Notes under the pieces: generated by a model
Seen by the model: the letters and a program-made list of their open reading frames with translations, nothing else
Database searches by the model: none
Told to the model about the DNA's origin: nothing
Program-made: the position numbers and the translations under genes
IMG/VR virus record: IMGVR_UViG_3300021478_000004
Coordinates: 1-60,503 of that record
Origin: a virus
Taxonomy: Duplodnaviria; Caudoviricetes
Reading direction: 5' to 3' (one strand)
Length of the DNA stretch: 60,503 nucleotides
Shown: one piece after another, positions 5,942 through 16,363 of the stretch
Layout of the letters: each line of letters opens with the position of its first letter
Numbering within the stretch: the first letter of the stretch is position 1

Positions 5942-7105
5942 TCAATCCTTTACGGCGGCCTCGAACATCGTGAAGATGCCCCATTCCTTGAAGTTGCCAG
6001 CCGCATTCAGCTTCGCCAGCTTTCCAAGCCCGTAGCACATCTCAACGCCAGTGCCGCGGACGAACCCGTAGTCGTCTTCCTTGCGGAAGGTAGCCATCGG
6101 CATCTTGCCCCAGCACCAGGCTTGCGCCTGCTGGCCGCAGAGGAACGCGGGCGCTACCTGGGTTGTCGCGGCGGCTCCGGCGGTCGCGTAAAAGGTCGGC
6201 AACCGGAGCGACAATTCCGGGATTTCCCGGATGATCACGCCGTTGTAGAGCAAGTCGCCGTCGACGAAGATCGGGTTCTTGAGATAGCCCTGATTTTCGC
6301 GGGCGCGCGAGTTCTGGTTCGCGGTTTTGATATCCGTGTCGTTCTGAGCGTCACGGAACTGCTCTTGCCCGACGAATAGCACGAACCATTCCGTGCCGTT
6401 TTCCTTCAGCTTGTACGGCCGGATACGCGGATTCGCCAGCTTGGCCGCCCGCTTGGCCCTCATGATCAGGGCTCCTGACATCGTCATCGCCGTCGTGATA
6501 TTCGTCATCGAGGCGGCGAAGTTGCCAGCCGACAGGTTCGCGGCGTTGGACGATCCGATCAGGATGCGGTCGGCGTTGTCGGTGATCCATGTGTTGCGCT
6601 GCGCCGCCGTGGCCGCGTCGAACAGGATGCCGTTGACGCGCTGGCCGTTGGCGCTTCCTAGGCCGGCAGGCGCGGATTGCGAGGGCAGAGCGTAGAACGA
6701 GTCGCAAATCTCGTCGCGCTGTAGTTCCTTGCCCCAATCCACCAGCATCGGCTTGGCTTCGGCGAACAAGTCGATCGAGGATTTGTTCTCCTCGGGCTTG
6801 TTGATTACGACCGCGTTTCGAGCCCAATCGACGTAAAGACGCTGCCCGTAGTTGTCGAGGGCCTCTTCGTTGCCGACCAGAGGGCCGCTAGCGATGGCTT
6901 GAGCATTGAGCCTGGCCATCAGCGGGACGTTGATCTGTTCGCCGCCGTTCTTGCCGCCCTTGTCGAGGTCGGGAATTACGCGAATGATCGTGTTGATGTC
7001 CGTGCCCATGTAGGGGGAGAACAGATTCTCGCGGACATATTCTCGGAAGATCTGCTTCCGGAATTCTATGAGTTTGTTGTTGGCCTGTGTGGCTGTGAAA
7101 GCCAT
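5942..7105 (-). CDS. Major capsid protein (DUF4043/N4-gp56-like)
   Basis: LVGNEEALD, NPIF..G.LLYNGVIIRE, FLCGQQA, EDDYG motifs; downstream of scaffold. Confidence 0.9.
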   Translation of the reverse strand: MAFTATQANNKLIEFRKQIFREYVRENLFSPYMGTDINTIIRVIPDLDKGGKNGGEQINVPLMARLNAQAIASGPLVGNEEALDNYGQRLYVDWARNAVVINKPEENKSSIDLFAEAKPMLVDWGKELQRDEICDSFYALPSQSAPAGLGSANGQRVNGILFDAATAAQRNTWITDNADRILIGSSNAANLSAGNFAASMTNITTAMTMSGALIMRAKRAAKLANPRIRPYKLKENGTEWFVLFVGQEQFRDAQNDTDIKTANQNSRARENQGYLKNPIFVDGDLLYNGVIIREIPELSLRLPTFYATAGAAATTQVAPAFLCGQQAQAWCWGKMPMATFRKEDDYGFVRGTGVEMCYGLGKLAKLNAAGNFKEWGIFTMFEAAVKD

Positions 7106-7161: not shown

Positions 7162-8208
7162 TTAAGTGAAAGCGCCGTCGAAGACCGCTCGATCCGATCC
7201 GTCGAGTATTCCGGGATCGATCGGCGCGCGGATGTTGCCGCCGGACGCCCGATTGAGCGACGCGGGCAGGCGGGTTTGAGTTCGCGGGGTTCCGTCATCG
7301 CCCGCCATCGCGTCGGCGCGCATTTCGGCCACGAGTTTTTTCCTGAACTCGGGATCGTTCATGAGCGCCGTGCGCGCGTCTTCGGCGATCCTCGCCTTGT
7401 AGGCGGCCGGATCGTCGCCGACCTCGCGAAGCGTTTCCGTTCGCTTGTGCCAAGCGACGACAGCCTCTCCGGGGTTCAGAGATGAGGTCATTCGCTCGGC
7501 CAGCGCGCGGCCATCCGAGCTGCTTTGGGCGGCGCTCTGCAAAGCTGTGAAGGCTTTGACGAACGTATCGCCGTGGCGATCCTTGGCCATTTGCATGCTC
7601 GCGTTGATGCGCATTTCCTCCATTCGCTGGTCTCGCGCCTGGAGCCGAGCTTCCACCCTCTTGTCGATATAGTCCGAGTACGCTTGCGGACTTTCGTACA
7701 TGTCAGGGGGTGCATCTGGCTTGATCTCGGCTGGCTTTGGCTGCTCGGCGGGCCTTTGCTGCTGACGAAGCGCCGTCAGGAACTCGGCGCGAAGGGCGTC
7801 GATCTTCCTTTGGCTCTCGGCTTCTGCGGCTTCGAGGCGCGCCTTCAGCGCGTTGCGTTCGGTCTCAAAGGCGAGCGTCCGCTCTCGGAGGATGCGAGAG
7901 GGCACACGTCCCTTCGAATCCTCTTCGACATCTGGCTCTGGCTTGGTTTCCGGTTTGGCTTCCGGCTTGGGCTCGGCTTTCGCTTCAACCTTTTCAGGTT
8001 CGCCCTCGCCTTCCTCGCCTTCCTCGTCCGCCTCGTCCTCGTCCTCATCGGGCTCATGCTGACCTTCTAGCCCGTCACCCATCGCTTCGCGCGATCGATC
8101 TCCGGTTTCGTCGAGCGTCAGTTCTTCCTTGCCCCACGCGTCGCCGAAGATTTCCTTGTTAGTCCCGATAATCGCATCCCGAAGGATGTCCTGTTCCGTG
8201 TCCGCCAT
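7162..8208 (-). CDS. Capsid scaffolding protein
   Basis: Acidic N-terminus, RVPSRILRER, coiled coil, PDMYESP; lies between portal and MCP. Confidence 0.8.
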   Translation of the reverse strand: MADTEQDILRDAIIGTNKEIFGDAWGKEELTLDETGDRSREAMGDGLEGQHEPDEDEDEADEEGEEGEGEPEKVEAKAEPKPEAKPETKPEPDVEEDSKGRVPSRILRERTLAFETERNALKARLEAAEAESQRKIDALRAEFLTALRQQQRPAEQPKPAEIKPDAPPDMYESPQAYSDYIDKRVEARLQARDQRMEEMRINASMQMAKDRHGDTFVKAFTALQSAAQSSSDGRALAERMTSSLNPGEAVVAWHKRTETLREVGDDPAAYKARIAEDARTALMNDPEFRKKLVAEMRADAMAGDDGTPRTQTRLPASLNRASGGNIRAPIDPGILDGSDRAVFDGAFT

Positions 8209-8328: not shown

Positions 8329-10308
8329 CTATGCAGGCCGCTGTTGGCCCTGTTGCTGCCCCTGCGGTTGCGCTGGGGGCTGAAACAACTGTAGCGCCTC
8401 GGTCCACATGCGGTGCTGCAATTCAGCCGCGTCAAGCTGCGTCTGCGTCTCGTGCGCGTTGACCTGATGTTGCAGCCCCGCGGCATCGAGATGCACCTTC
8501 GCGCCCGCGACATGGGCATCGTGGATCGTCTTCTGGGCCATCGCGTCGGCTCGGCGTGCCTCGGCCGCGGTCTTGGCGTTCCTTACCGCTTCGCCTTCGA
8601 GAGCGAGCTTCTTTGCCATCTCCTTCGCTGGGTCGGCCTGCGGCGGCTTCGGCGAAAGCATCTGCAAAATCATGTTCTTGCGCTCGCGCGGCATCGGCGA
8701 GAGTTCGATCAAGACCTGGGGCGGGAATGTGCCGGGCGGATATCCCTTTAACGTGTCGTACGCGTCCTGCATGACGGTCTCGACGTCCGGCCCCTCTTCA
8801 AGGACGATGTTCACGTCGAGTGCGCCCAGAAGATTGACCATCGCTGGTCGCCCCCATTGGTCCTCTCCAAGTGCGTTCAACCAAATTCCTGCCTTTACTG
8901 GGTCGTTGTCGTTGATGATTGGCAACCACCGCTCTTTCGTCCATGACCGTTGTGCGGTCGTCCAAATGTCTCGATAGAGTTGTAGCTTCCATTGCCGATA
9001 CGCGAGTACGAACGGACCCAACTCGGCCATGCCGGGCTGGCGCAGCAGTTCCAACGCGCGCCCGGAAATGTTGGCCAGCGACGCGCCCTGAAGCACGGCA
9101 ATATTGGTTCCTGCGAAACTGTCGATTTCCTGACCAGCCTGTTCAGACATCCCATGGAATGCGGCGAGGTCCGTTGTCTTGTCGTCGGGCTCCCACTTTC
9201 TCCCCGGATTTACTTCGATAATTCCGTCCGGGCGAGCCTGCTCGATGCGAGCCTGCTCGACGTTGTCGACCGCGCCCTTCTCGGTAATCACTCGTCGGGT
9301 GTTCGCAAGATGCAATTCCTTGGACTTTGACTGATTGAACGAATCCTGCGGGCCTTTGAGTGCCCGGGCGAACCCGTAGCGATCCCCCTGTTGGTCGACC
9401 GCTGCCGAGAACATATTGAACGACGAAGCGCTATTTCCATCTTTATCGAAAAACGGAGAAATACCCTCGTCTAGCAAGACTGATGAAACGTAGAACGCCC
9501 AGCACCATTTGCCCTTCCGCTTATACCAGTGCTCTATGAGACGAAGGCTCTGGGTCGACGTCACGACCCACTTGTATTCTCGGTCGGCGTTGGTCGTGAG
9601 GTCCGAATCGCCCTGGATAAGGCCTCTGAGCACGTCCTCCTTATGGGGGAAAAGCTCGATTGCCTCCTCGACGTCTAGCCATTTCGACAAGCCCTCGTAG
9701 CGCCGATCATTGAAGTCGAGGCGGTAGGACCGAGGGTCATAGAAATATTCGTCTCCGATGACCCAATTGAGTTTGATGTCGTTTTCGCCGTTTTTCCCAG
9801 GCACCAGCGTACGCTGGACGCCGGCCACGCCGTCGATGCAGCACTGCAAAAGGCACCATGGATCTATGCCTTTCCAGTCGTTGCCGTCGAGAACCGAGCG
9901 GATGACCTGGGTAGCGATATCAGCCCCGGCTTGGCTTCGCACCGAGGTCGGCAAGGCTTTAGGGTCTGACCGAAGCCGCTCCACAAGGCCGACGATGCCA
10001 TTGATCTTACGATTCACCCGGGGCCAAGTGAGCACCGCCTGATGACGTCGTTTCAGGGTTTCAATCTGCTTCCCGTCCCACTGTATGCAATGGTAGTAGC
10101 AACGCGCAATCTTCTGTTCTTCGATCTCTTCGGATTTCGACCAGAGATAGTCTAGGTATTGCGTGCGCAGCTTACGCACGTCTAGGAACTGATCCTTCTC
10201 GTCGTCGTCCGTCTCGCTCACGGACGCGATCTTGTCGCGCTGTTGTGGGTCGCGAACTAGGCCCGTCAGCCGGGATCGGTCCCGAGATAGAAGCTCAGCT
10301 ACGGGCAT
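8329..10308 (-). CDS. Portal protein (P22 gp1-like)
   Basis: 659 aa; YYH..QW, INGIVGLVER, YFYDPRS, RYG..RAL..PQD..N...SK, SGRA; C-terminal helical barrel region. Confidence 0.9.
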   Translation of the reverse strand: MPVAELLSRDRSRLTGLVRDPQQRDKIASVSETDDDEKDQFLDVRKLRTQYLDYLWSKSEEIEEQKIARCYYHCIQWDGKQIETLKRRHQAVLTWPRVNRKINGIVGLVERLRSDPKALPTSVRSQAGADIATQVIRSVLDGNDWKGIDPWCLLQCCIDGVAGVQRTLVPGKNGENDIKLNWVIGDEYFYDPRSYRLDFNDRRYEGLSKWLDVEEAIELFPHKEDVLRGLIQGDSDLTTNADREYKWVVTSTQSLRLIEHWYKRKGKWCWAFYVSSVLLDEGISPFFDKDGNSASSFNMFSAAVDQQGDRYGFARALKGPQDSFNQSKSKELHLANTRRVITEKGAVDNVEQARIEQARPDGIIEVNPGRKWEPDDKTTDLAAFHGMSEQAGQEIDSFAGTNIAVLQGASLANISGRALELLRQPGMAELGPFVLAYRQWKLQLYRDIWTTAQRSWTKERWLPIINDNDPVKAGIWLNALGEDQWGRPAMVNLLGALDVNIVLEEGPDVETVMQDAYDTLKGYPPGTFPPQVLIELSPMPRERKNMILQMLSPKPPQADPAKEMAKKLALEGEAVRNAKTAAEARRADAMAQKTIHDAHVAGAKVHLDAAGLQHQVNAHETQTQLDAAELQHRMWTEALQLFQPPAQPQGQQQGQQRPA

Positions 10309-10594
10309 GCTTGCGTTCTTCGGCTTTCGCTAGCGCCCTGTCCGAAACCGCCCCCGACTTACGCAAATGCCGAGCCTTCATGGCCAAGCCGTGATGCAGC
10401 TTCGCCTTTTTCTCGTGGTGCTTGGCGATGGCCTCGACGTATTTGCCGTTGGCCTTTATCTTCTCGGCGCGGTCGAGATGGCGGCCGCCTTCGTCCAACT
10501 CGTAATCGTCCCAAGGCCCGTTGGAGCGCTCGTGGGGCTCCTTGTACTCACGGGACGGCGTGGCCGTGGACGATTCGATCGCGGCGCGCGGCAT
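10295..10594 (-). CDS. Small basic protein with shared C-terminal motif KARHLRKSGAVSDRALAK
   Basis: RBS GAGGGAGGG; overlaps the portal start. Confidence 0.7.
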   Translation of the reverse strand: MPRAAIESSTATPSREYKEPHERSNGPWDDYELDEGGRHLDRAEKIKANGKYVEAIAKHHEKKAKLHHGLAMKARHLRKSGAVSDRALAKAEERKHARS

Positions 10595-10596
10595 GG

Positions 10597-10821
10597 TCAG
10601 CCCTCCCTCTTGATAGAGTGCAATTCCCCGCGAGGCTTGCCCTGGATGGTTTCTCGCAGAGCGGTGAGCATTGCTATCCCCTCGACGCGTAACGATCGGT
10701 CCTCGATCAATTCAACTCTGCAAATTAGTTGCGTATATGCGCGAACACGCTCCGCAATCGGATCACGCTGCGGAGGTTCGTAGTTGATGATTTCCTTGTC
10801 GGTCGTCACCGCTACGCCCAC
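10597..10821 (-). CDS. Hypothetical protein
   Basis: Fills the gap in the operon. Confidence 0.55.
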   Translation of the reverse strand: MGVAVTTDKEIINYEPPQRDPIAERVRAYTQLICRVELIEDRSLRVEGIAMLTALRETIQGKPRGELHSIKREG

Positions 10822-12167
10822 CCTTGCTTCTCAGCCAACCGCTCGAACGCTCGCTTAGAGATCACGCCGCTCTTCACCATGTCCTCTGCCTTCGCCTGCT
10901 CTTTCGACACCGGCGCATCTCCGGACGCCCCGAGCGTCTCCTTCAAGTCCGCCAGCGCCGTTTCTAGCGCGTCAGGATTGCTCTTGATCTCCAAGGCATG
11001 CACCGTCTTGGCAATTTCCGTCACCTTGCCGATGGCTTCCTTCGCGGTATCGCCGTAAGCGACGACCGCGCCGAGGAACGGCATCTTGTTGGCCTGCGGA
11101 ATGACGTACTTGCTGCCTTCGTGCTCAGTGAAATACCTGAGCTTGACGTTCTCGTCGTACTCTTTCGGGTATGTCACCTTGACCCACGATTCCGCTAGCT
11201 CCTCGCTCGTCAAGATCAGTTCCGCGCCCCACTTGCCGGAGAATTCCGGCTCTATCAAAACGCCCTCGGCTCCGTACCAGACGATATCTCCTAGGTTGGT
11301 CATCATGATCTGATAGAGTTCGCCCGGAGGCGAAGGCATGCGGCAGCACGGGTCTATGAGATAATCGTGGCCGTCTTCGGTGCTTCTAATTTCGGCCGAA
11401 AGAAAGCCGCGGTAGTTGTATTTCTTGAGTTGCGGCGAGAGCTTGGCGTTGATACTGCTGACCGCCGCGGGAATCTTGCTGTATTTTACCACCTTGGCGA
11501 CGAGCGCCGTATCCTTGGCCTCTACGCCGACGAGGCAATAATCGGTAAATTGGCCGTCGATCGTATAGCCGTCATAGGCCAACTCGATCGCCGGGCCGGT
11601 GTTGTCCTCGACGATGAACTCCATCAAGTCGGCCTTAGGCCCTAGCTTATAGTCGATCTCGTCGAGCTTGCCCTCAACCGCCTCGAAAGTCGGCGCATGG
11701 AATGTCTCCATGTCTCCGCGCGTCCGGCTGATCTTCACGTACTGATCGTCGTTCGCCTTGAGATACCGGCGAAGCTTCTCGATCCCCATCATGGTTTTGT
11801 AGGGGCCGACTTCGATGCCGAGCCGCGTGCTGATTTCCTTCGACTTCGCGCGATCTATTTCTAGTTCGCAGCCGCCGCGACAACCCCATACGCGCTTGCC
11901 GAGGCTGACGAGGTACTTCTGAACGTCGCCCTCGTAGACGTCGGGAAAAACAAATATGTCGACCTCGTCGAGCCGCGTCCATGGGCTGTCGACGCTTTCG
12001 ATTTCCGGCACGCCCATCGCGATCATCTGCAATTGCGACGTTGGAAAGCCGGTCACCCACGGACAGTAGTACAGGACTTTGCCGAACTGCTTGGATAGGG
12101 TGACAGCGAGGGAGACGAAGAGGCCGTTGTCCCAGACCAGCGCCGTCTTGCTTTTCAGGTCCGTCAA
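10812..12167 (-). CDS. ATP-grasp amide ligase, PurD/GAR-synthetase-like (451 aa, TTG start)
   Basis: VWG...CELEIDRAKSKE..RLGI...Y...YVKIS...ETF, FIVED, YRGFLSAE, YLIDPCCR.PSP, GAVVAYGDT.KEAI; TTG overlaps the upstream TGA. Confidence 0.75.
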   Translation of the reverse strand: MTDLKSKTALVWDNGLFVSLAVTLSKQFGKVLYYCPWVTGFPTSQLQMIAMGVPEIESVDSPWTRLDEVDIFVFPDVYEGDVQKYLVSLGKRVWGCRGGCELEIDRAKSKEISTRLGIEVGPYKTMMGIEKLRRYLKANDDQYVKISRTRGDMETFHAPTFEAVEGKLDEIDYKLGPKADLMEFIVEDNTGPAIELAYDGYTIDGQFTDYCLVGVEAKDTALVAKVVKYSKIPAAVSSINAKLSPQLKKYNYRGFLSAEIRSTEDGHDYLIDPCCRMPSPPGELYQIMMTNLGDIVWYGAEGVLIEPEFSGKWGAELILTSEELAESWVKVTYPKEYDENVKLRYFTEHEGSKYVIPQANKMPFLGAVVAYGDTAKEAIGKVTEIAKTVHALEIKSNPDALETALADLKETLGASGDAPVSKEQAKAEDMVKSGVISKRAFERLAEKQGWA

Positions 12168-12580
12168 GATTCCCCCGATCGATATTCCAACCCGTTTACA
12201 GCCGCCTCGTAAGCGTCCCAACTCACTCCTAGCACCATCGCCGCAAACCGCTCGACAAGCGTCGCGAGATGATGTCCCTCGCGATACGGGGCCTTCGGAT
12301 CGTCCCCCGGCTCGCTAAAATCCCCGGGCTTGCGGTTCTTCTCGTAATCCATGTCGAACGCATCCACGTCGGCTTGCTTCACGCCGCGACGCTTGCACCA
12401 CGCGAGTTCGAGCATCTCATGGAACGCGACCAAGAACTGATAGCGCCAGTCGCCGAGTTCAGAGACCCGGATGTGCCAGCCTTCCTCATCCGTCCACCAA
12501 TCTCCGACCGTGTCGTAGCGCTGGCTGTTGTGGGGGATGGTCTTGATCTCGATCATGCCGTCGAAGAGTGACTCTCGCAT
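12164..12580 (-). CDS. Putative zincin-like metalloprotein
   Basis: IPH..QRY.TVGD, LVAFHEMLE (HExxE), distal EPGDDP.APY...H..A..VE. Confidence 0.55.
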   Translation of the reverse strand: MRESLFDGMIEIKTIPHNSQRYDTVGDWWTDEEGWHIRVSELGDWRYQFLVAFHEMLELAWCKRRGVKQADVDAFDMDYEKNRKPGDFSEPGDDPKAPYREGHHLATLVERFAAMVLGVSWDAYEAAVNGLEYRSGES

Positions 12581-12640
12581 ACATGGGTCCTCCGCGGACG
12601 AACCAGCAAAGCAGTTCGATCGCATTGAGTGCGAGGTCGA

Positions 12641-13018
12641 TCAATGCGCCGTCCAATTAGTTCCGTTGCAGAACAGTGGCCCGATGAGAGCGCCTCCCGA
12701 AACATAGGTCGCGTTGTAGGTCATCGTCGTGATGTCGTTCGACCATACGTTCTGTCCCGCGTTGTCCGCATTGCAAGTCGGTATGGGAGTTCCTGCCGCA
12801 CTGTACGGCCCTGGGATAGGAACAGCCGATAGGCCCTTTATCAAGTCCTGCTTGCTGCCGAAGTAGGTATCCCACGTACCTTGTGTCGGCGCTGATCCTG
12901 GATCGAACGGCGGGACGGTCTGGGCGACAGCTTGCGCCACCAGCGCGGCACGCCAGCATGCGGCAAAGAAGGCAATCTCCAGCAGAAGCGCCGCGATGAT
13001 GAGACGGCCTCGCATCAC
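12641..13018 (-). CDS. Secreted protein with C-terminal C...CNGTNW module
   Basis: Hydrophobic leader ending AVA|Q; C-terminus resembles those of the fibre-like proteins at 46623 and 52795. Confidence 0.7.
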   Translation of the reverse strand: MMRGRLIIAALLLEIAFFAACWRAALVAQAVAQTVPPFDPGSAPTQGTWDTYFGSKQDLIKGLSAVPIPGPYSAAGTPIPTCNADNAGQNVWSNDITTMTYNATYVSGGALIGPLFCNGTNWTAH

Positions 13019-13224
13019 TCCTCGCCCTTCATCTTCGCCATCTGTTTTGGCGACACCAGCCCGCGCTTGGCCATCTTGTACGCGTGCTTCGGGAGGCGCT
13101 TGATCTTGCGGCCGTGGTCGGCCTTGACGAACTCGGCTCCCACTTTTTTTGGGATTCCGATCGTCGAGCGGCCTTCTTCAGCCGCATGCATAGCGCGCGA
13201 TTGTGATTGCGATTTTGATGGCAT
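13015..13224 (-). CDS. Small basic phage protein (MPSKSQSQ... type) with shared C-terminal motif KHAYKMAKRGLVSPKQMAK
   Basis: 69 aa; MPS.S..Q...M.AA...GIP.KV..EF..AD pattern common in phage head regions. Confidence 0.75.
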   Translation of the reverse strand: MPSKSQSQSRAMHAAEEGRSTIGIPKKVGAEFVKADHGRKIKRLPKHAYKMAKRGLVSPKQMAKMKGEE

Positions 13225-13282
13225 TTCGCGGGTTGCCTTTCCTCGGTATTCGACGAGGGCGTTGTTAGGTCCGGTGGCGGTT

Positions 13283-14026
13283 TCAGCCACCGTCTTGTTG
13301 CGCTGCCTCGGCGCGAGCCTGCTGCTCGTCATGCCATTTCTTGTACGAAGCCTGATCGCTCTCGGCCTGCGTCTTGGGCTTGACAGCCGCCTGGTTCTTA
13401 GCGGCCGTGGCCCTTGCGTCGGCCGCGTCCTTGTCCGCCTTGACCTTGGCGTCTCTCGCCTGGGCTTCGGTGTCCCACTGCGTCCCCTGTAGCGCTGGAT
13501 TGGGCAATCCCGGCGCGGGCGGGCCGTGGTCCATGTTGTTGCGAGCATCCATAGCCGCTTGCTTGATGCGCCGATCATCCATGTGCTCGCTCTGCCACAT
13601 CGCCACGCGGGCTCTATATCCGTCGTCGCTCTCGCCGGTGGCCCTTGCGGGCATCGCATCCGGCTCGCTCCGCCACTTCTCTACGCGAGCCTTATGGGCT
13701 TCCTCGGTCTCGCCAAAGGCTCGCTTGGGTGCGTTTGCGGCTTCGGCCCGCTTCTCCTCGGCCTCATCGTCTTCCTGCCATCGAGCATACGATCCGCGCT
13801 CCGGCACGTCGCCCTCGCCGTCCCACACATGAACGGACGGGCGTTGCCACAGCGATCCCTCCTTGCCGAACACGGCTAGGTTGACCAGCGGGCTTGCCTT
13901 AGCGTCGACGTGACGATGCGAATGCACATAGGTCACGAACGCCAAAAGCGGCTGGTCCGAGTGCATCACCGTTTCGTGCCCACCGGCATAAAACCACAAC
14001 GGTTGGCCTACTCGTAGGTCTTTCAT
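13283..14026 (-). CDS. Hypothetical protein with SH3-like N-terminus and two 22-aa repeats
   Basis: GGAGG RBS; RVG..LWFY...QPL.A.VTYVH...VNLAVF; repeats PKRAFGETEEAHKARVEKWRSE / PARATGESDDGYRARVAMWQSE. Confidence 0.75.
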   Translation of the reverse strand: MKDLRVGQPLWFYAGGHETVMHSDQPLLAFVTYVHSHRHVDAKASPLVNLAVFGKEGSLWQRPSVHVWDGEGDVPERGSYARWQEDDEAEEKRAEAANAPKRAFGETEEAHKARVEKWRSEPDAMPARATGESDDGYRARVAMWQSEHMDDRRIKQAAMDARNNMDHGPPAPGLPNPALQGTQWDTEAQARDAKVKADKDAADARATAAKNQAAVKPKTQAESDQASYKKWHDEQQARAEAAQQDGG

Positions 14027-14041: not shown

Positions 14042-14335
14042 TCAAAAACCTGATTGCGACCAGAACTTGCCTTCGGGACCGCAACGATCTTCCGCTCCTC
14101 CGGCCCGCTCTCGGTAAGCGTCGCGGCTGTTCGGGACATCTTCGCCTATGACTAGATCGCGATGGGAACCCAATTGCGGCCGCTCGCAAATGTGCTTGAT
14201 CGACGGAGCATAATCTTGTGCCTCATCGATCCGCTCAGGTGAGCGATAATGCGTGCACCGATCACAAGACCGATCGGTCAGCGGTTCGTCGGCGTCGGCG
14301 TATCCGGACTTGTCTTCGCTCATAACTTCCCTCAC
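14042..14335 (-). CDS. Hypothetical Cys-containing protein
   Basis: CDRC...C...CGPEGKFW; coupled to the TerL stop. Confidence 0.6.
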   Translation of the reverse strand: MREVMSEDKSGYADADEPLTDRSCDRCTHYRSPERIDEAQDYAPSIKHICERPQLGSHRDLVIGEDVPNSRDAYRERAGGAEDRCGPEGKFWSQSGF

Positions 14336-15834
14336 ATCGTCAGCGCATCGAGATCGCTATAGTTCGAACCGCTGCCGCGATAGCCGCTGCTCGTGTTCTT
14401 CTCAGGTTGCACCGGCTTCTGCCCATCTATCATCGTGTCGAGCAGTTGCCCGATCAGCCCGCACGCGTCTACCTGATCGTCGTGAACTCCGGCCGGGAAC
14501 CGCAGCAACTCGCTTTCGAACTCGCCCCGCCACGCCGCCGCAACCGGCACACGCAAGCCCCGCGTCGCGATCAAGCCTCGGAACGACTGCGCTCGCACCG
14601 CCTTGTCGCCTCGGGTCGGAAACTGCTCTCGCAGGGTGTAGGCGTGGCGCTCGCGCATCTCGCGCTCCAAGAACGGCCCGACGCCGCTCTTGATCTGGCC
14701 GGATTCCTCGGCCCAACCCATCGGCTTCCACTTCTTGACCAAGTCGCAAAATACCTCGACCCATTCGTCGGATGCGGCTTGCTTCCGCCAGATGTCCAGC
14801 ATCCACGGATTGCTGTCAGGGTCGAGCGCGAGGACCGCGTGGACCGTGAAGTCGCCGCCACTCGATGTGACAGCGTAGTCTGATCCTCCGTATACCCGTA
14901 GGCTTTCCCGCGGCGGGAGATTGTCTACCGGGAGGAGCCATTCGCGCTTGAAATAATCTCCCGTGTCGGGAATAGGTTCTTGCTGATACAGCGCCGAGAA
15001 GTAGCGAGGGATGCTGTTGGCTCTAATTCGCTCTATCGCCGTCAACGGATAGCGATCAGGCCACAACGCCTCGCCAACGTCGCTTACGGCTGGCATTTTG
15101 ACGATTTCGAACTTGTCGCCGCCCGACGCCGCGTGCGAGATGATCTTCCCAGAAAGATCGTCGTCGTGCATGCGATGATTGATCAGGATTACCGCTCCGC
15201 CCGGCTCCAAGCGGTTATACGCGGTTCCGATATACCAGTCCCAGACTTCCTTGCGCTTATTCTCGCTCTGGGCGTCAGCCATCGAGGAAAACGGGTCGTC
15301 GATAAGAAGAAAGTCAGCGCCCTTGCCCATGAAGTGGCCGCCGACGCCGACCGCGTAGTAACCTCCTCCGTCTTGGGTGCGCCACTTGTTCTTGGCCTGG
15401 CTATCTTCCGCGAGGGACGTGTTGAAAATGCACTTGTATTGCGGGCTGTTGATCAAGTTTCTGACGTCGCGTCCGAAATCTGTCGCCAGATCGGCGCTAG
15501 CCGAAACAGAGATGAACTCTTTGTCGGGTTGACGCCCTAAAATATAAGCCGGCAAGCGACGAGAAGCCAATTCCGACTTGCCGTGCCGAGGAGGGAGCAG
15601 CAGCATCAAACGATCGACTTCGCCCCGCTCGACCCTCTCCAACTGTTCCGCTACCTTCCGATGAAATTCCGCGGCACGGTACTTCGGCAGCGTGTATTCA
15701 GTGAATGGAATCAGAGCCTTCCTCGCCATCCTGCGCTTGAGAAGCTCCTCGGCTGCGTCCAATGGCGATAAAGGCGGCAAGTTCTTCGTCTGCGTATTCG
15801 GTAATGTGTTTGCGATGCTCGACACGCATTTCAA
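14332..15834 (-). CDS. terL: Terminase large subunit (true start may be ~20 codons downstream)
   Basis: Walker A PPRHGKS, Walker B LLIDDP, LYQQEP, SDYA, nuclease HDDQVDA. Confidence 0.95.
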   Translation of the reverse strand: MKCVSSIANTLPNTQTKNLPPLSPLDAAEELLKRRMARKALIPFTEYTLPKYRAAEFHRKVAEQLERVERGEVDRLMLLLPPRHGKSELASRRLPAYILGRQPDKEFISVSASADLATDFGRDVRNLINSPQYKCIFNTSLAEDSQAKNKWRTQDGGGYYAVGVGGHFMGKGADFLLIDDPFSSMADAQSENKRKEVWDWYIGTAYNRLEPGGAVILINHRMHDDDLSGKIISHAASGGDKFEIVKMPAVSDVGEALWPDRYPLTAIERIRANSIPRYFSALYQQEPIPDTGDYFKREWLLPVDNLPPRESLRVYGGSDYAVTSSGGDFTVHAVLALDPDSNPWMLDIWRKQAASDEWVEVFCDLVKKWKPMGWAEESGQIKSGVGPFLEREMRERHAYTLREQFPTRGDKAVRAQSFRGLIATRGLRVPVAAAWRGEFESELLRFPAGVHDDQVDACGLIGQLLDTMIDGQKPVQPEKNTSSGYRGSGSNYSDLDALTM

Positions 15835-16363
15835 CCTTGGTCGGGAACATCCCCAAGTGCTTGCCGATATCGACTAGCGCCGCCCGCTTGTCGTGGAGCT
15901 TGACCGTCACGCCGCCGTTGATGTTCTGAGTGACTTGCGAAATAGCAGCGGCCGTTGCGTCGTCGAGTTCATCGCTGGGGACGATCTCGACCAGGTTCGT
16001 CACGACGGTTTTGATGACCAGAACCTCGCCGCCGTCCGGATTATCCTCCTCGGTGACTAGCGCACTCTTCCACCGAACAGCTTTACGGATGTCGGAGAAT
16101 CCGATTTTAGCGAGTTCAGCTAGAACACGCTCCTTTGATATTGCTAGTCTTTCTATCGCGCGCTCGGTTGCGATGACCTCTATCGATCGCGCTCGCTCTA
16201 GGAGTTCAGCGACCCGTACTACAATGTGCTCTTTTCGCGCCATAGCGGCAGCATTCGACCTATGTTCGTGATATCCAGCAATGACATAGGACGCATCTGC
16301 GCTCTTTCCCTTGGCGAGTTCTTGCGCGAACCGCTCGTGCTTCGGGTTGGGCAGAACCGGCAT
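15698..16363 (-). CDS. terS: Terminase small subunit
   Basis: L.NPKHERFAQELAKG...AGY, ERVLAELAKIGFSD, VKLHDKRAAL..IGKHLGMF. Confidence 0.9.
   Translation of the reverse strand: MPVLPNPKHERFAQELAKGKSADASYVIAGYHEHRSNAAAMARKEHIVVRVAELLERARSIEVIATERAIERLAISKERVLAELAKIGFSDIRKAVRWKSALVTEEDNPDGGEVLVIKTVVTNLVEIVPSDELDDATAAAISQVTQNINGGVTVKLHDKRAALVDIGKHLGMFPTKVEMRVEHRKHITEYADEELAAFIAIGRSRGASQAQDGEEGSDSIH

Follow-up and report, generated by a model that had tools for sequence, protein, structure and literature searches.

The window, by which we mean the whole 60,503-nt stretch of viral DNA analysed here, carries its head genes on the minus strand (Table 1). Three otherwise unrelated proteins encoded on that strand, in the interval between the terminase and portal genes, share a common ending, A-x-x-[LM]-x-K-x-G-x-[IV]-S-x-[KR]-[AQ]-h-x-[KR]-h. 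The bearers of this tail are a PurD-like ATP-grasp enzyme, a 99-aa helical protein (orf99) and a 91-aa basic protein (orf69L). Their genes are part of the late head operon, in a block that has the large terminase gene as its boundary; the end of orf99 and the start of the portal gene share 14 nt, and orf138 occupies the slot where most relatives have an AdoMetDC-like gene. Going by its homologues, TTG 12167 is the most likely start of the enzyme. The first-pass annotation of this DNA had started orf69L at ATG 13224; homologues begin MAETxxxPNNK, and their N-termini make GTG 13290, which overlaps the stop of an upstream 247-aa ORF, the most likely start. For orf99 no Pfam or PHROG family was matched; we collected 29 distinct homologues from related loci, and the full-length alignment has 34 rows (the window protein, 25 locus homologues and 8 library proteins). 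We looked for a cultured relative of this phage lineage and found none.

Table 1. Head-module features, tailed genes and tail segments of the window.
Feature	Coordinates	Strand	Basis or sequence
Major capsid protein	5942..7105	-	phrog_334, E 4.6e-73
Presumed scaffolding protein	7162..8208	-	Presumed from position between portal and capsid protein
Poly-acidic run of presumed scaffold, residues 51-70 (14 D/E in 20)	7999..8058	-	
P22-like portal protein, candidate partner	8329..10308	-	Pfam PF16510, E 3.3e-70
orf99, 99-aa helical basic protein, 'EVRDAMHT' family	10295..10594	-	ORF; GC3 0.80
orf99 tail, 32-aa segment, Gly at residue 81, Ser at 84	10310..10405	-	Tail alignment
19-aa motif of orf99	10325-10381	-	MKARHLRKSGAVSDRALAK
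PurD-like ATP-grasp ligase, 451 aa	10812..12167	-	AF2 pLDDT 92.9, Foldseek
Enzyme linker end and tail: predicted helix 422-432, turn, helix 438-448	10824..10919	-	AF2 and alignment
19-aa motif of ATP-grasp enzyme	10839-10895	-	AKAEDMVKSGVISKRAFER
orf138, viral family, directly upstream of ATP-grasp gene	12164..12580	-	
orf69L, 91-aa basic protein: N-terminal 'PNNK' motif, phrog_16759-like core and tail	13015..13290	-	
orf69L tail, 32-aa segment, ends at last residue	13018..13113	-	Tail alignment
19-aa motif of orf69L	13033-13089	-	KHAYKMAKRGLVSPKQMAK
Large terminase	14332..15834	-	Named from position and sequence features

All three motifs lie on the minus strand where the first-pass annotation had placed them, although the distance from the 19-aa motif to the stop, given there as 5-8 residues, is 9, 8 and 5 residues. 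Four regular expressions of decreasing strictness each match just these three sites in a six-frame translation of the 60.5-kb window, with the matches ending 5-13 residues ahead of the stop. The core pattern K[SR]G[AVL][VI]S.[RK] occurs three times in the window against 0.01 times per shuffle, and none of 200 dinucleotide-preserving shuffles reaches three; the loosest pattern is not significant by itself (shuffle mean 0.92; 17 of 200 shuffles reach three). Because the patterns were derived from the same three window sites, independent support comes from related loci. The claim that the motif is conserved at the protein level holds: in pairwise comparisons, 28 of 57 nucleotides of the motif segments are identical and 8-9 of 19 third positions are shared, with 5-8 of 19 residues identical. 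Stripped of their tails, the three window proteins have no mutual BLASTP match (best E 4.3).

Our survey of related loci covered 81 sources, the window and 80 enzyme-anchored loci, with 1816 called genes. A tail HMM gave 125 matches at E<0.05 in these sources and none in reversed sequences; every match is on the same strand as the enzyme gene, and 113 of the 125 are no more than 12 residues from the C-terminus. The tail is present in about 60 related viral contigs, with one to five tails per tagged locus and two to five per genome, and is borne by at least six different N-terminal modules, also in relatives without the enzyme. Two pairs of sister contigs (L132/L136 and L142/L145) carry near-identical tails on two different N-terminal modules. 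It had been proposed that such a search would find C-terminal matches on diverse domains in head-gene neighbourhoods, and it does so in many related phages. Each tagged family keeps its own tail flavour, a pattern that points to long-standing selection and not to recent copying. Searched against 1.84 billion proteins, a profile of 66 tails matched 71, 58 of them no more than 12 residues from the C-terminus.

The tail is independent of the enzyme, since portal loci without the enzyme are still tagged: 8 of the 11 with at least 3 kb of upstream sequence carry a tagged protein. Thirty-five of the 81 loci have the enzyme and no tail match, through complete tail-less genes in 32 and a gene cut by the contig end in three. 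Of the 24 tail-less enzyme loci flanked by 3 kb or more on each side, 20 are also without this portal and capsid family. The P22-like portal family is present in 41 of the 46 tailed loci.

The enzyme had been called an ATP-grasp ligase, and its predicted structure supports that fold. The top Foldseek match in the PDB, over the whole length, is the GAR synthetase 2yw2_A (E 9.8e-19, TM 0.70/0.75), with PurD, biotin carboxylase and PurK chains matched at E 1e-13 to 1e-18; a profile of the enzyme family finds PurD among PDB sequences at E 7e-4. Although the fold resembles PurD (GAR synthetase) throughout, sequence identity is 13-16%, and the phage enzyme differs from the PurD branch in being encoded in a head operon, usually beside an AdoMetDC-like gene (the two are paired in most relatives), and in having an extra linker and tail. 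The charged columns invariant in 65 homologues (K110, K145, R150, D152, E187, E259, R261, D272, R276, E283 and N291) are compatible with a candidate active enzyme. We found 586 homologues. The tail is kept in 115 of the best 120, and the other five, of 418 aa, stop before the linker, indicating that the tail is dispensable for the enzyme fold. More distant homologues, 42-53% identical and mostly outside this head module, are without linker and tail. The flexible linker noted earlier ahead of the enzyme tail coincides with block 411-420, where the model has its lowest confidence (pLDDT 66).

The 66 diverse tails align without gaps over 32 columns, save for ragged C-terminal ends. The turn Gly is present in 66 of 66, the Ser is invariant, and the position between them is Ile or Val in 100%; counted from the Gly, positions -2, +5 and +9 are each Lys or Arg in 91%. 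AlphaFold2 (AF2) predicts the same helix-Gly-turn-helix hairpin in the enzyme, behind its linker, and in orf99, where helices span residues 30-48, 50-79 and 85-98 and residues 80-84 form the turn between two of them. The tail is thus predicted to be a portable C-terminal two-helix hairpin of ~20-25 residues. Judging from residue conservation and general helix-capping rules, the hairpin would be held by the helix-ending Gly, an Ile/Val 'staple' and the Ser capping the second helix, with small hydrophobic residues at -7, -4, +7 and +10 forming its core, and would display the three conserved Lys/Arg. The flexible linker on the enzyme, the predicted helix-turn-helix and the diverse N-terminal domains bear out the idea of a transferable protein-level module.

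The tail is probably a divergent SHOCT-like bi-helical module, this being the nearest known kind, because the sole non-phage-type proteins among the 71 library matches, three in number, are tandem SHOCT or SHOCT-like repeats; the matched repeats belong to PF22746 (E 5e-33 and 6e-50) or PF09851 (25.2 bits). Aligned with hhalign to 18 such repeat units, the tails give 96% probability and E 4.4e-9, a circular result in that the units were found with the same profile; aligned to six independently fetched SHOCT domains they give the same register but a probability of only 2.7% (P 0.006), which speaks against the kinship. No Pfam SHOCT-family model reaches the window's tails, and PF09851, PF22746 and PF20612 have no match in the window at E<=10; across the 66 tails, PF09851 touches two (best E 0.013) and PF20612 one. 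SHOCT and SHOCT-like domains (PF09851, PF22746, PF20612 and PF08044) are like the tail in comprising ~28-32 residues in two short amphipathic helices with no indels, in their invariant turn Gly, and in lying mostly at the C-termini of many unrelated domains, sometimes at N-termini or in tandem. The register is also alike: position -4 is hydrophobic, 0 is Gly, +2 is aliphatic, +3 is Ser or Thr, and +7 is hydrophobic or aromatic. By alignment, and by AF2 for two proteins, the tail has the about 30 residues, two alpha-helices and freedom from insertions and deletions that define SHOCT. SHOCT is also described as having a strongly conserved glutamate in addition to the glycine (PMC3581485), and Glu stands at +6 in five of the six fetched instances, with Gln in L159; by contrast, the tail column +6 holds Ala 34 times, Gln 31, Arg once and Glu never. 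The tail further differs from SHOCT in the extra conserved Lys/Arg at -2, +5 and +9, in a shorter second helix, in its confinement to one phage lineage and in being common to several proteins of one operon.

This probable kinship at the profile level would suit a tag that keeps the enzyme and small proteins on the cytoplasmic membrane, at its inner face. SHOCT-like domains have been predicted to anchor disparate domains to the inner leaflet (Ravi et al., 2024; PMC11237479), and the basic residues of the tail could bind anionic lipid head groups. We consider a membrane role very unlikely, since the published one is itself predicted from gene context, the Eisenberg mean hydrophobicity of the two tail helices is strongly negative (-0.46 and -0.31) with moderate hydrophobic moments (0.53 and 0.42), and their few hydrophobic residues are those needed for the hairpin's own core. 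Moreover, SHOCT-like hairpins occur as tandem repeats after the transmembrane helix of TrbI-like conjugation proteins. In VirB10-type proteins the region after this helix is periplasmic, a topology that would place these repeats in the periplasm.

Because SHOCT-like hairpins recur as such tandem repeats, structure alone may account for much of what is conserved. Hairpin geometry alone explains most conserved positions, and the same pattern is a repeat unit in unrelated proteins, as would be expected if the bearers had no shared partner and the tail were a generic C-terminal stabilising cap, or targeted a host factor such as a chaperone or protease, its spread within the block being due to local recombination. 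We see little prospect for this explanation, given that the three surface Lys/Arg are conserved across all N-terminal modules, that the enzyme tail stands behind a flexible linker and is cleanly lost in forms outside the lineage, and that the family-specific flavours speak for selection.

The occurrence of two to five tails per genome and the amphipathic helices could instead reflect mutual association, in which hairpins would pack into four-helix bundles, linking the small proteins with the enzyme or among themselves, whether in a complex or in a carrier-substrate relation. Oligomerisation was also the original hypothesis for SHOCT, although the one published experiment did not support it (PMC3581485). 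The enzyme-less sister clade has one tagged protein per locus, which rules out hetero-association as a general role, and we regard association among tails as highly improbable.

Net charge of the tails ranges from +1 to +12, with a median of +6 for small-protein tails, and the small tagged proteins have more basic residues upstream of the tail. Together with the Lys/Arg conservation at three positions, this charge would fit a basic hairpin that binds dsDNA non-specifically, the small proteins acting as histone-like counter-ions and the enzyme riding the DNA, maybe into the capsid. Nucleic-acid binding is among the hypotheses proposed for SHOCT (PMC3581485). The pairing of enzyme and AdoMetDC-like genes also suggests a polycation link. 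We nonetheless judge DNA binding unlikely: enzyme-type tails are weakly basic (median +3, minimum +1), the two-helix hairpin is without the third helix of classical DNA-binding helix-turn-helix domains, its turn is G-x-I-S rather than the G-[IV]-G of helix-hairpin-helix motifs, and no DNA-binding Pfam family recurs among the 66 tails.

With the module present on several proteins of a single small operon, whatever it binds must be common to the bearers. By analogy with the T4 capsid-targeting sequence (CTS), we tentatively propose, with confidence somewhat short of even, that the tail is a shared docking tag for procapsid loading. Phages of this lineage would attach the hairpin to the ATP-grasp enzyme as well as several small basic proteins produced along with the head genes; the tagged proteins would all dock on one common, probably acidic, head-assembly site on the inside of the procapsid (scaffold, portal or coat), and would be co-assembled and packaged as cargo, as are the small internal proteins of T4 that share the CTS. 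A fuller version, possible but doubtful, is a portable capsid-loading tag of T7/P22-like podoviruses that docks on the poly-acidic N-terminal segment of the scaffold or on the portal, and packages the enzyme and small basic proteins for delivery with the DNA into the next host. As a lead only, the poly-acidic run of the presumed scaffold, a protein with no family match in Pfam or PHROG, might pair electrostatically with the basic tails; 31 of 34 tagged and none of four untagged loci have in this protein a stretch of 20 residues with 11 or more D/E, the loci not being phylogenetically independent. Comparative genomics cannot single out the partner, because the tail is found together with all three families, those of portal, scaffold and capsid. 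The presumed scaffold uses no such hairpin, so the phage itself gives no precedent for a coat site that binds one.

Further observations count against the docking-tag reading, as do the tandem SHOCT-like repeats of TrbI-like proteins. Two loci (L074/L075) are without tails although their portal belongs to the same family (39% identity). The single tagged gene of the enzyme-less clade is not beside the portal but ~2 kb upstream of the large terminase, ahead of the small-terminase position. Lastly, published predictions for SHOCT-like domains point to membrane localisation or nucleic-acid binding and not to capsids.

For SHOCT-like domains, which are widespread and were described in 2013, oligomerisation was not supported, and membrane or nucleic-acid binding is a prediction. 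Here the question of their function becomes tractable by a pull-down or reporter experiment, and a docking role, if true, would be the first experimentally approachable function for such a domain. It would also offer a possible cargo-loading route in podoviruses apparently without a prohead protease, and a second tag comparable to the T4 CTS, but C-terminal and independent of a protease, that could load foreign cargo; if the tag loads capsids, it is small and modular enough for packaging foreign proteins. The same block presents an unexplained PurD-like ATP-grasp enzyme wired into a head module, often beside an AdoMetDC-like decarboxylase.

Among known systems, the T4 CTS is an N-terminal stretch of ~10 residues that the prohead protease removes, and the T4 enzyme Alt also bears it. 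It resembles the tail in its logic, in that one phage equips small basic proteins, diverse in other respects, with the same short peptide, whereas the tail is C-terminal and predicted to be helical and has no sequence relation to the CTS; no protease gene was noticed in reading through the block. The CTS puts its bearers into the scaffolding core (PMC3012670).

The coat-binding helix-turn-helix of the P22 scaffold, to which the first-pass annotation had likened the tail, is similar in predicted fold: both are C-terminal, basic helix-Gly-turn-helix elements of phages with a P22-like portal. Sequence kinship was not borne out, SHOCT-like modules being nearest; the tail HMM scores gp8 at -0.9 bits (best domain) with an alignment off the hairpin, and we rejected it as a relative by sequence. 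The hydrophobic register after the Gly differs, and the P22 hairpin is on the scaffold, whereas here the tail is on non-scaffold proteins: the window holds three tail matches in all, none in the presumed scaffold, which ends differently.

Encapsulin cargo-loading peptides direct unrelated cargo enzymes to an HK97-fold shell from short C-terminal positions behind flexible linkers. These peptides are short and extended, follow a different consensus and form no helical hairpin, and there is no encapsulin context here; what they share with the tail is the short C-terminal tag behind a linker.

A C-terminal motif shared by three otherwise unrelated proteins between the large terminase and the portal, as claimed in the first-pass annotation, proved to be real. 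Four regular expressions of decreasing strictness, applied to a six-frame translation of the window, each matched the same three sites and no others, and every site lies 5-13 residues ahead of a stop codon. In dinucleotide-preserving shuffles the core pattern occurred 0.01 times per shuffle and reached three occurrences in 0 of 200; the loosest pattern reached three in 17 of 200, and is not significant on its own. The coding segments of the tails are identical at 28 of 57 DNA positions, the peptides have 5-8 of 19 residues in common, and with their tails removed the three proteins have no detectable mutual similarity. From these comparisons we rejected a recent DNA duplication as the source of the tails.

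At 60.5 kb, the window represents a complete virus record that has direct terminal repeats. Its head genes lie on the minus strand in the order small and large terminase, eight ORFs, portal, presumed scaffold and major capsid protein, and all three tagged genes (orf99, a PurD-like ATP-grasp ligase, and orf69L) are among the eight ORFs. The stop codon of orf99 overlaps the portal start. An ATG at 13224 had been taken as the start of orf69L; this was revised, the most likely start being the GTG at 13290 (91 aa), which fits the homologue N-termini (MAETxxxPNNK) better. The enzyme most likely starts at the TTG at 12167 (451 aa). Within the tagged block, one ORF of 125 aa begins with a strongly hydrophobic stretch that may be a signal or a membrane anchor; it has neither a tail nor a family match.

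Coordinates of the head genes, the tagged block and associated features in the window
Feature	Coordinates	Strand	Basis
Small terminase	15698-16363	-
Large terminase	14332-15834	-	position and sequence features
orf69L (tagged)	13015-13290	-	most likely start, GTG
Second conserved motif, orf69L N-terminus	13228-13290		MAETxxxPNNKxVxFxGKxxRE
125-aa ORF	12641-13018
138-aa ORF	12164-12580	-	purely viral family
ATP-grasp enzyme (tagged)	10812-12167	-	most likely start, TTG
orf99 (tagged)	10295-10594	-
P22-like portal	8329-10308	-	PF16510, E 3.3e-70
Presumed scaffold	7162-8208	-	position alone
Poly-acidic run in presumed scaffold	7999-8058		14 D/E in 20
Major capsid protein	5942-7105	-	phrog_334

Counted from the glycine as position 0, 66 diverse tails have invariant Gly at 0 and Ser at +3, and only Ile or Val at +2 (100%). 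Hydrophobic residues occupy -7 (98%), -4 (97%), +7 (98%) and +10 (80%), Lys or Arg occupies -2, +5 and +9 (91% each), and +6 is Ala or Gln. Read by general helix-capping rules, the Gly would end a first helix, the Ser would cap a second, and Ile at +2 would form a hydrophobic staple with the residue at +7; the three basic residues would present an exposed surface. For orf99, too, the AF2 prediction is this hairpin, with the first tail helix prolonging a long helix (residues 50-79). Net charge of the tails ranges from +1 to +12, the enzyme-type tails being the least basic (median +3).

In the enzyme the hairpin is an appendage. The AF2 model (pLDDT 92.9, from a 65-sequence alignment) resembles GAR synthetase PurD most closely by Foldseek (2yw2_A, E 9.8e-19, TM 0.70/0.75), with biotin carboxylases and PurK next in rank, and PurD is also reached, weakly, by the sequence profile (E 7e-4). 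A PurD-like C-domain is followed by a low-confidence linker (pLDDT 66), a helix (422-432), a turn and a second helix (438-448; pLDDT 80-84). Linker and tail end 115 of the 120 best homologues, the other five being 418-aa proteins that stop ahead of the linker. Two 799-aa homologues are about 350 residues longer and still end in the tail; the extra part of one has a weak LAGLIDADG-like match (PF14528, E 0.0069), which suggests an intein or homing-endonuclease insertion. In the phage collection the only cultured relatives with the enzyme are two Aquificae viruses at 26-28% identity. A Bradyrhizobium genome and also a Rhizobiales MAG contain related contigs, and the hosts of this phage lineage are therefore probably alphaproteobacteria. 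Enzyme relatives at 45-51% identity lie on a Bradyrhizobium sp. YR681 contig (L150), in a Rhizobiales MAG (L149) and on the Bradyrhizobium oligotrophicum chromosome (L153); these assemblies suggest the host range, and the chromosomal relative suggests either a prophage or capture of the gene.

Most related loci (L005-L064 and others; for example L023:9641-10063 and L039:9580-9996) encode, immediately upstream of the ATP-grasp enzyme, an S-adenosylmethionine-decarboxylase-like (AdoMetDC-like) pyruvoyl enzyme. This BLAST cluster (F1) spans 31 tailed and 16 tail-less loci; PF02675 gave E values of 6e-14 to 4e-3 in the five members tested, two of which pass the cut-off. This pairing is a hint that the substrate of the PurD-like ligase may be an amine produced by the decarboxylase, which would amount to polyamine-type chemistry. 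An ATP-grasp-type partner is not mentioned in the available portions of published work on phage AdoMetDC homologues. The window counterpart of this gene encodes an unrelated 138-aa protein with weak zincin-like structural leads only.

The other bearers are small proteins of several kinds. An upstream family, represented in the window by orf69L, has a 'PNNK' motif at the N-terminus, joined in some members but not in others to a phrog_16759-like core, and a downstream helical 'EVRDAMHT' family, which aligns as a single family from end to end (34-row alignment), includes orf99. Tails also end a small 'NMTRAxITGKVP' family, two kinds of Cys-rich proteins and a 69-aa 'MPWTGKSF' protein, and a 324-aa protein has the motif at both ends. 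In two pairs of sister contigs (L132/L136 and L142/L145), the proteins encoded at one and the same genomic position differ in their N-terminal module and have near-identical tails. The shortest PNNK-family members, of about 50 aa, contain little beyond the N-terminal motif and the tail, and judged from these motifs the combination looks like a two-ended adaptor. Some tagged proteins continue past the tail into 'LDK[MT]xPIA' or 'PRGGxGxGMAGM' (L010, L014, L017, L028, L033 and L037; P0130, P0136, P0152, P0163 and P0189). The only clear N-terminal tail-like instance among the loci is in a 499-aa DUF7178/phrog_3842 protein upstream of the portal (L141:948-2456; 14.5 bits). Searches of the small proteins and their neighbours against Pfam and PHROG gave no match except phrog_16759 on the orf69 core; one homologue matched the 'virion structural protein' family phrog_25121 too weakly to use (E 0.0058). 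In the phage collection orf99 has no cultured relative, and orf69 is represented by its core alone, in two records. A 'DUF3008' label considered for that core has no support in Pfam, is not mentioned in the literature searched, and was dropped.

We surveyed the tail with an HMM in 80 enzyme-anchored loci plus the window. Gene calls were heuristic and GC3-based, failing in low-GC loci, BLAST clustering splits small families, and many loci are fragments, some overlapping on one contig; all comparative counts are phylogenetically non-independent. Among 1816 genes in the 81 sources there were 125 matches at E<0.05, with none in reversed sequences, and all 125 are on the strand of the enzyme. The first-pass annotation had looked to C-terminal matches on diverse domains in head-gene neighbourhoods as support for a tag, and such matches are indeed what we found: 113 of the 125 lie at most 12 residues from the C-terminus, on several N-terminal modules. 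Tails occur in 46 sources, with 1-5 each, single tails being confined to short or truncated contigs. Of the 35 sources with no match, 32 have a complete enzyme gene that ends ahead of the linker and three (L066, L071 and L072) have the gene cut by the contig end; of the 24 tail-less sources flanked on each side by 3 kb or more, 20 are also without this portal and capsid family. In L074 and L075 the portal belongs to the family (39% identity), the enzyme is tail-less, and no other protein has a tail.

A further 67 loci were anchored on the portal. All 31 of these with the enzyme have tails, 29 of them two or more, and a tagged protein is present in 8 of the 11 loci that lack the enzyme and extend 3 kb or more upstream of the portal. 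Tail presence thus does not depend on the enzyme, and because tails persist without it we rejected enzyme-substrate recognition as their general role. In a more distant portal clade (46-49% identity) there is a single tagged gene, located upstream of the terminase genes and away from the portal, which makes a strict tie to the portal gene less convincing. The portal, scaffold and capsid families and two downstream ones all co-travel with the tail, so none is singled out as its partner, and terminase clusters F4 and F6 both co-occur with tails. That the tails have no shared partner, or that their target is a host factor, is improbable in our estimation. Given that the hairpin is portable, dispensable for the enzyme fold, kept on several co-expressed proteins and basic at its surface on all bearers, we propose that it is probably a shared docking or localisation module.

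The P22 scaffold had been named among the precedents for the tag. We discarded it as a sequence relative, since the tail HMM gives a score of -0.9 bits to the C-terminus of gp8 as found in the database record. The 66-tail profile found 71 of 1.84 billion representative proteins at E<=1e-3, with the motif at most 12 residues from the C-terminus in 58; 68 are either small proteins of phage type or fragments of the enzyme, and the remaining three are large and contain tandem copies internally. Pfam assigns these repeats to SHOCT-like PF22746 in two TrbI-like proteins (E 5e-33 and 6e-50) and to SHOCT PF09851 in the third (25.2 bits). The TrbI-like pair (P0128 and P0146; PF03743, conjugation-type) consist of an N-terminal hydrophobic segment, 4-6 tandem PF22746 hairpins and the TrbI domain, and such use in arrays may bear on what the fold does. 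Bona fide SHOCT domains fetched from two genomes have a register identical to that of the tail (hydrophobic -4, Gly, aliphatic +2, Ser/Thr +3), with Glu/Gln at +6 and Phe/Tyr at +7; the conserved Glu of SHOCT is absent from the tails. Profile-profile comparison of the tails gave 96% probability with the repeat units, a circular result as these were found by the tail profile itself, and 2.7% (P 0.006) with six independent SHOCT domains. Because the library matches and the register are shared, yet the window's tails match no SHOCT-family model of Pfam and the Glu is missing, we call the tail, on sequence criteria, a divergent SHOCT-like module that is outside membership by curated Pfam models. 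The tail profile had no meaningful match among PDB sequences (best, a repeat protein at E 0.012; a ribosomal protein S20 segment at E 0.77).

In the parts available to us, the founding SHOCT paper describes about 30 residues in two helices, mostly C-terminal, in 63 architectures and with no known function; its single experiment gave no support to oligomerisation, and it offers nucleic-acid binding or localisation instead (PMC3581485). DNA binding by our tails is unlikely in our judgement, and association of the tails with one another, which genomes with a single tail argue against, is more doubtful still. A later comparative study predicts, in its available part, that SHOCT-like domains tether a variety of unlike domains to the membrane at its inner leaflet (PMC11237479). 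For the phage tails we give membrane anchoring little credence, as their hydrophobicity is very low. Phage head modules are treated in the available portions of neither article, and our literature searches on ATP-grasp proteins with portal or terminase, SHOCT with capsid or phage, and capsid-targeting tags in podoviruses returned no description of this tag.

For a docking module, the target that we tentatively favour is the procapsid interior, because the tagged genes sit in the late head operon and orf99 runs into the portal gene. A weak lead is the poly-acidic run at residues 51-70 of the presumed scaffold, which could receive the basic hairpins: among loci whose tag status could be assessed, which are not phylogenetically independent, scaffold runs of at least 11 D/E in 20 are present in 31 of 34 tagged loci versus none of four untagged loci, whose best runs hold 9 (L074), 9 (L075), 10 (L138) and 7 (L139). 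The procapsid interior is also favoured because of the kind of protein that bears the tail. In phage T4, Alt presumably carries the capsid-targeting sequence (CTS). The proteins that share the CTS are, as far as the available part of the published account goes, the same kind of set as the enzyme and small basic proteins that share the hairpin here (PMC3012670).
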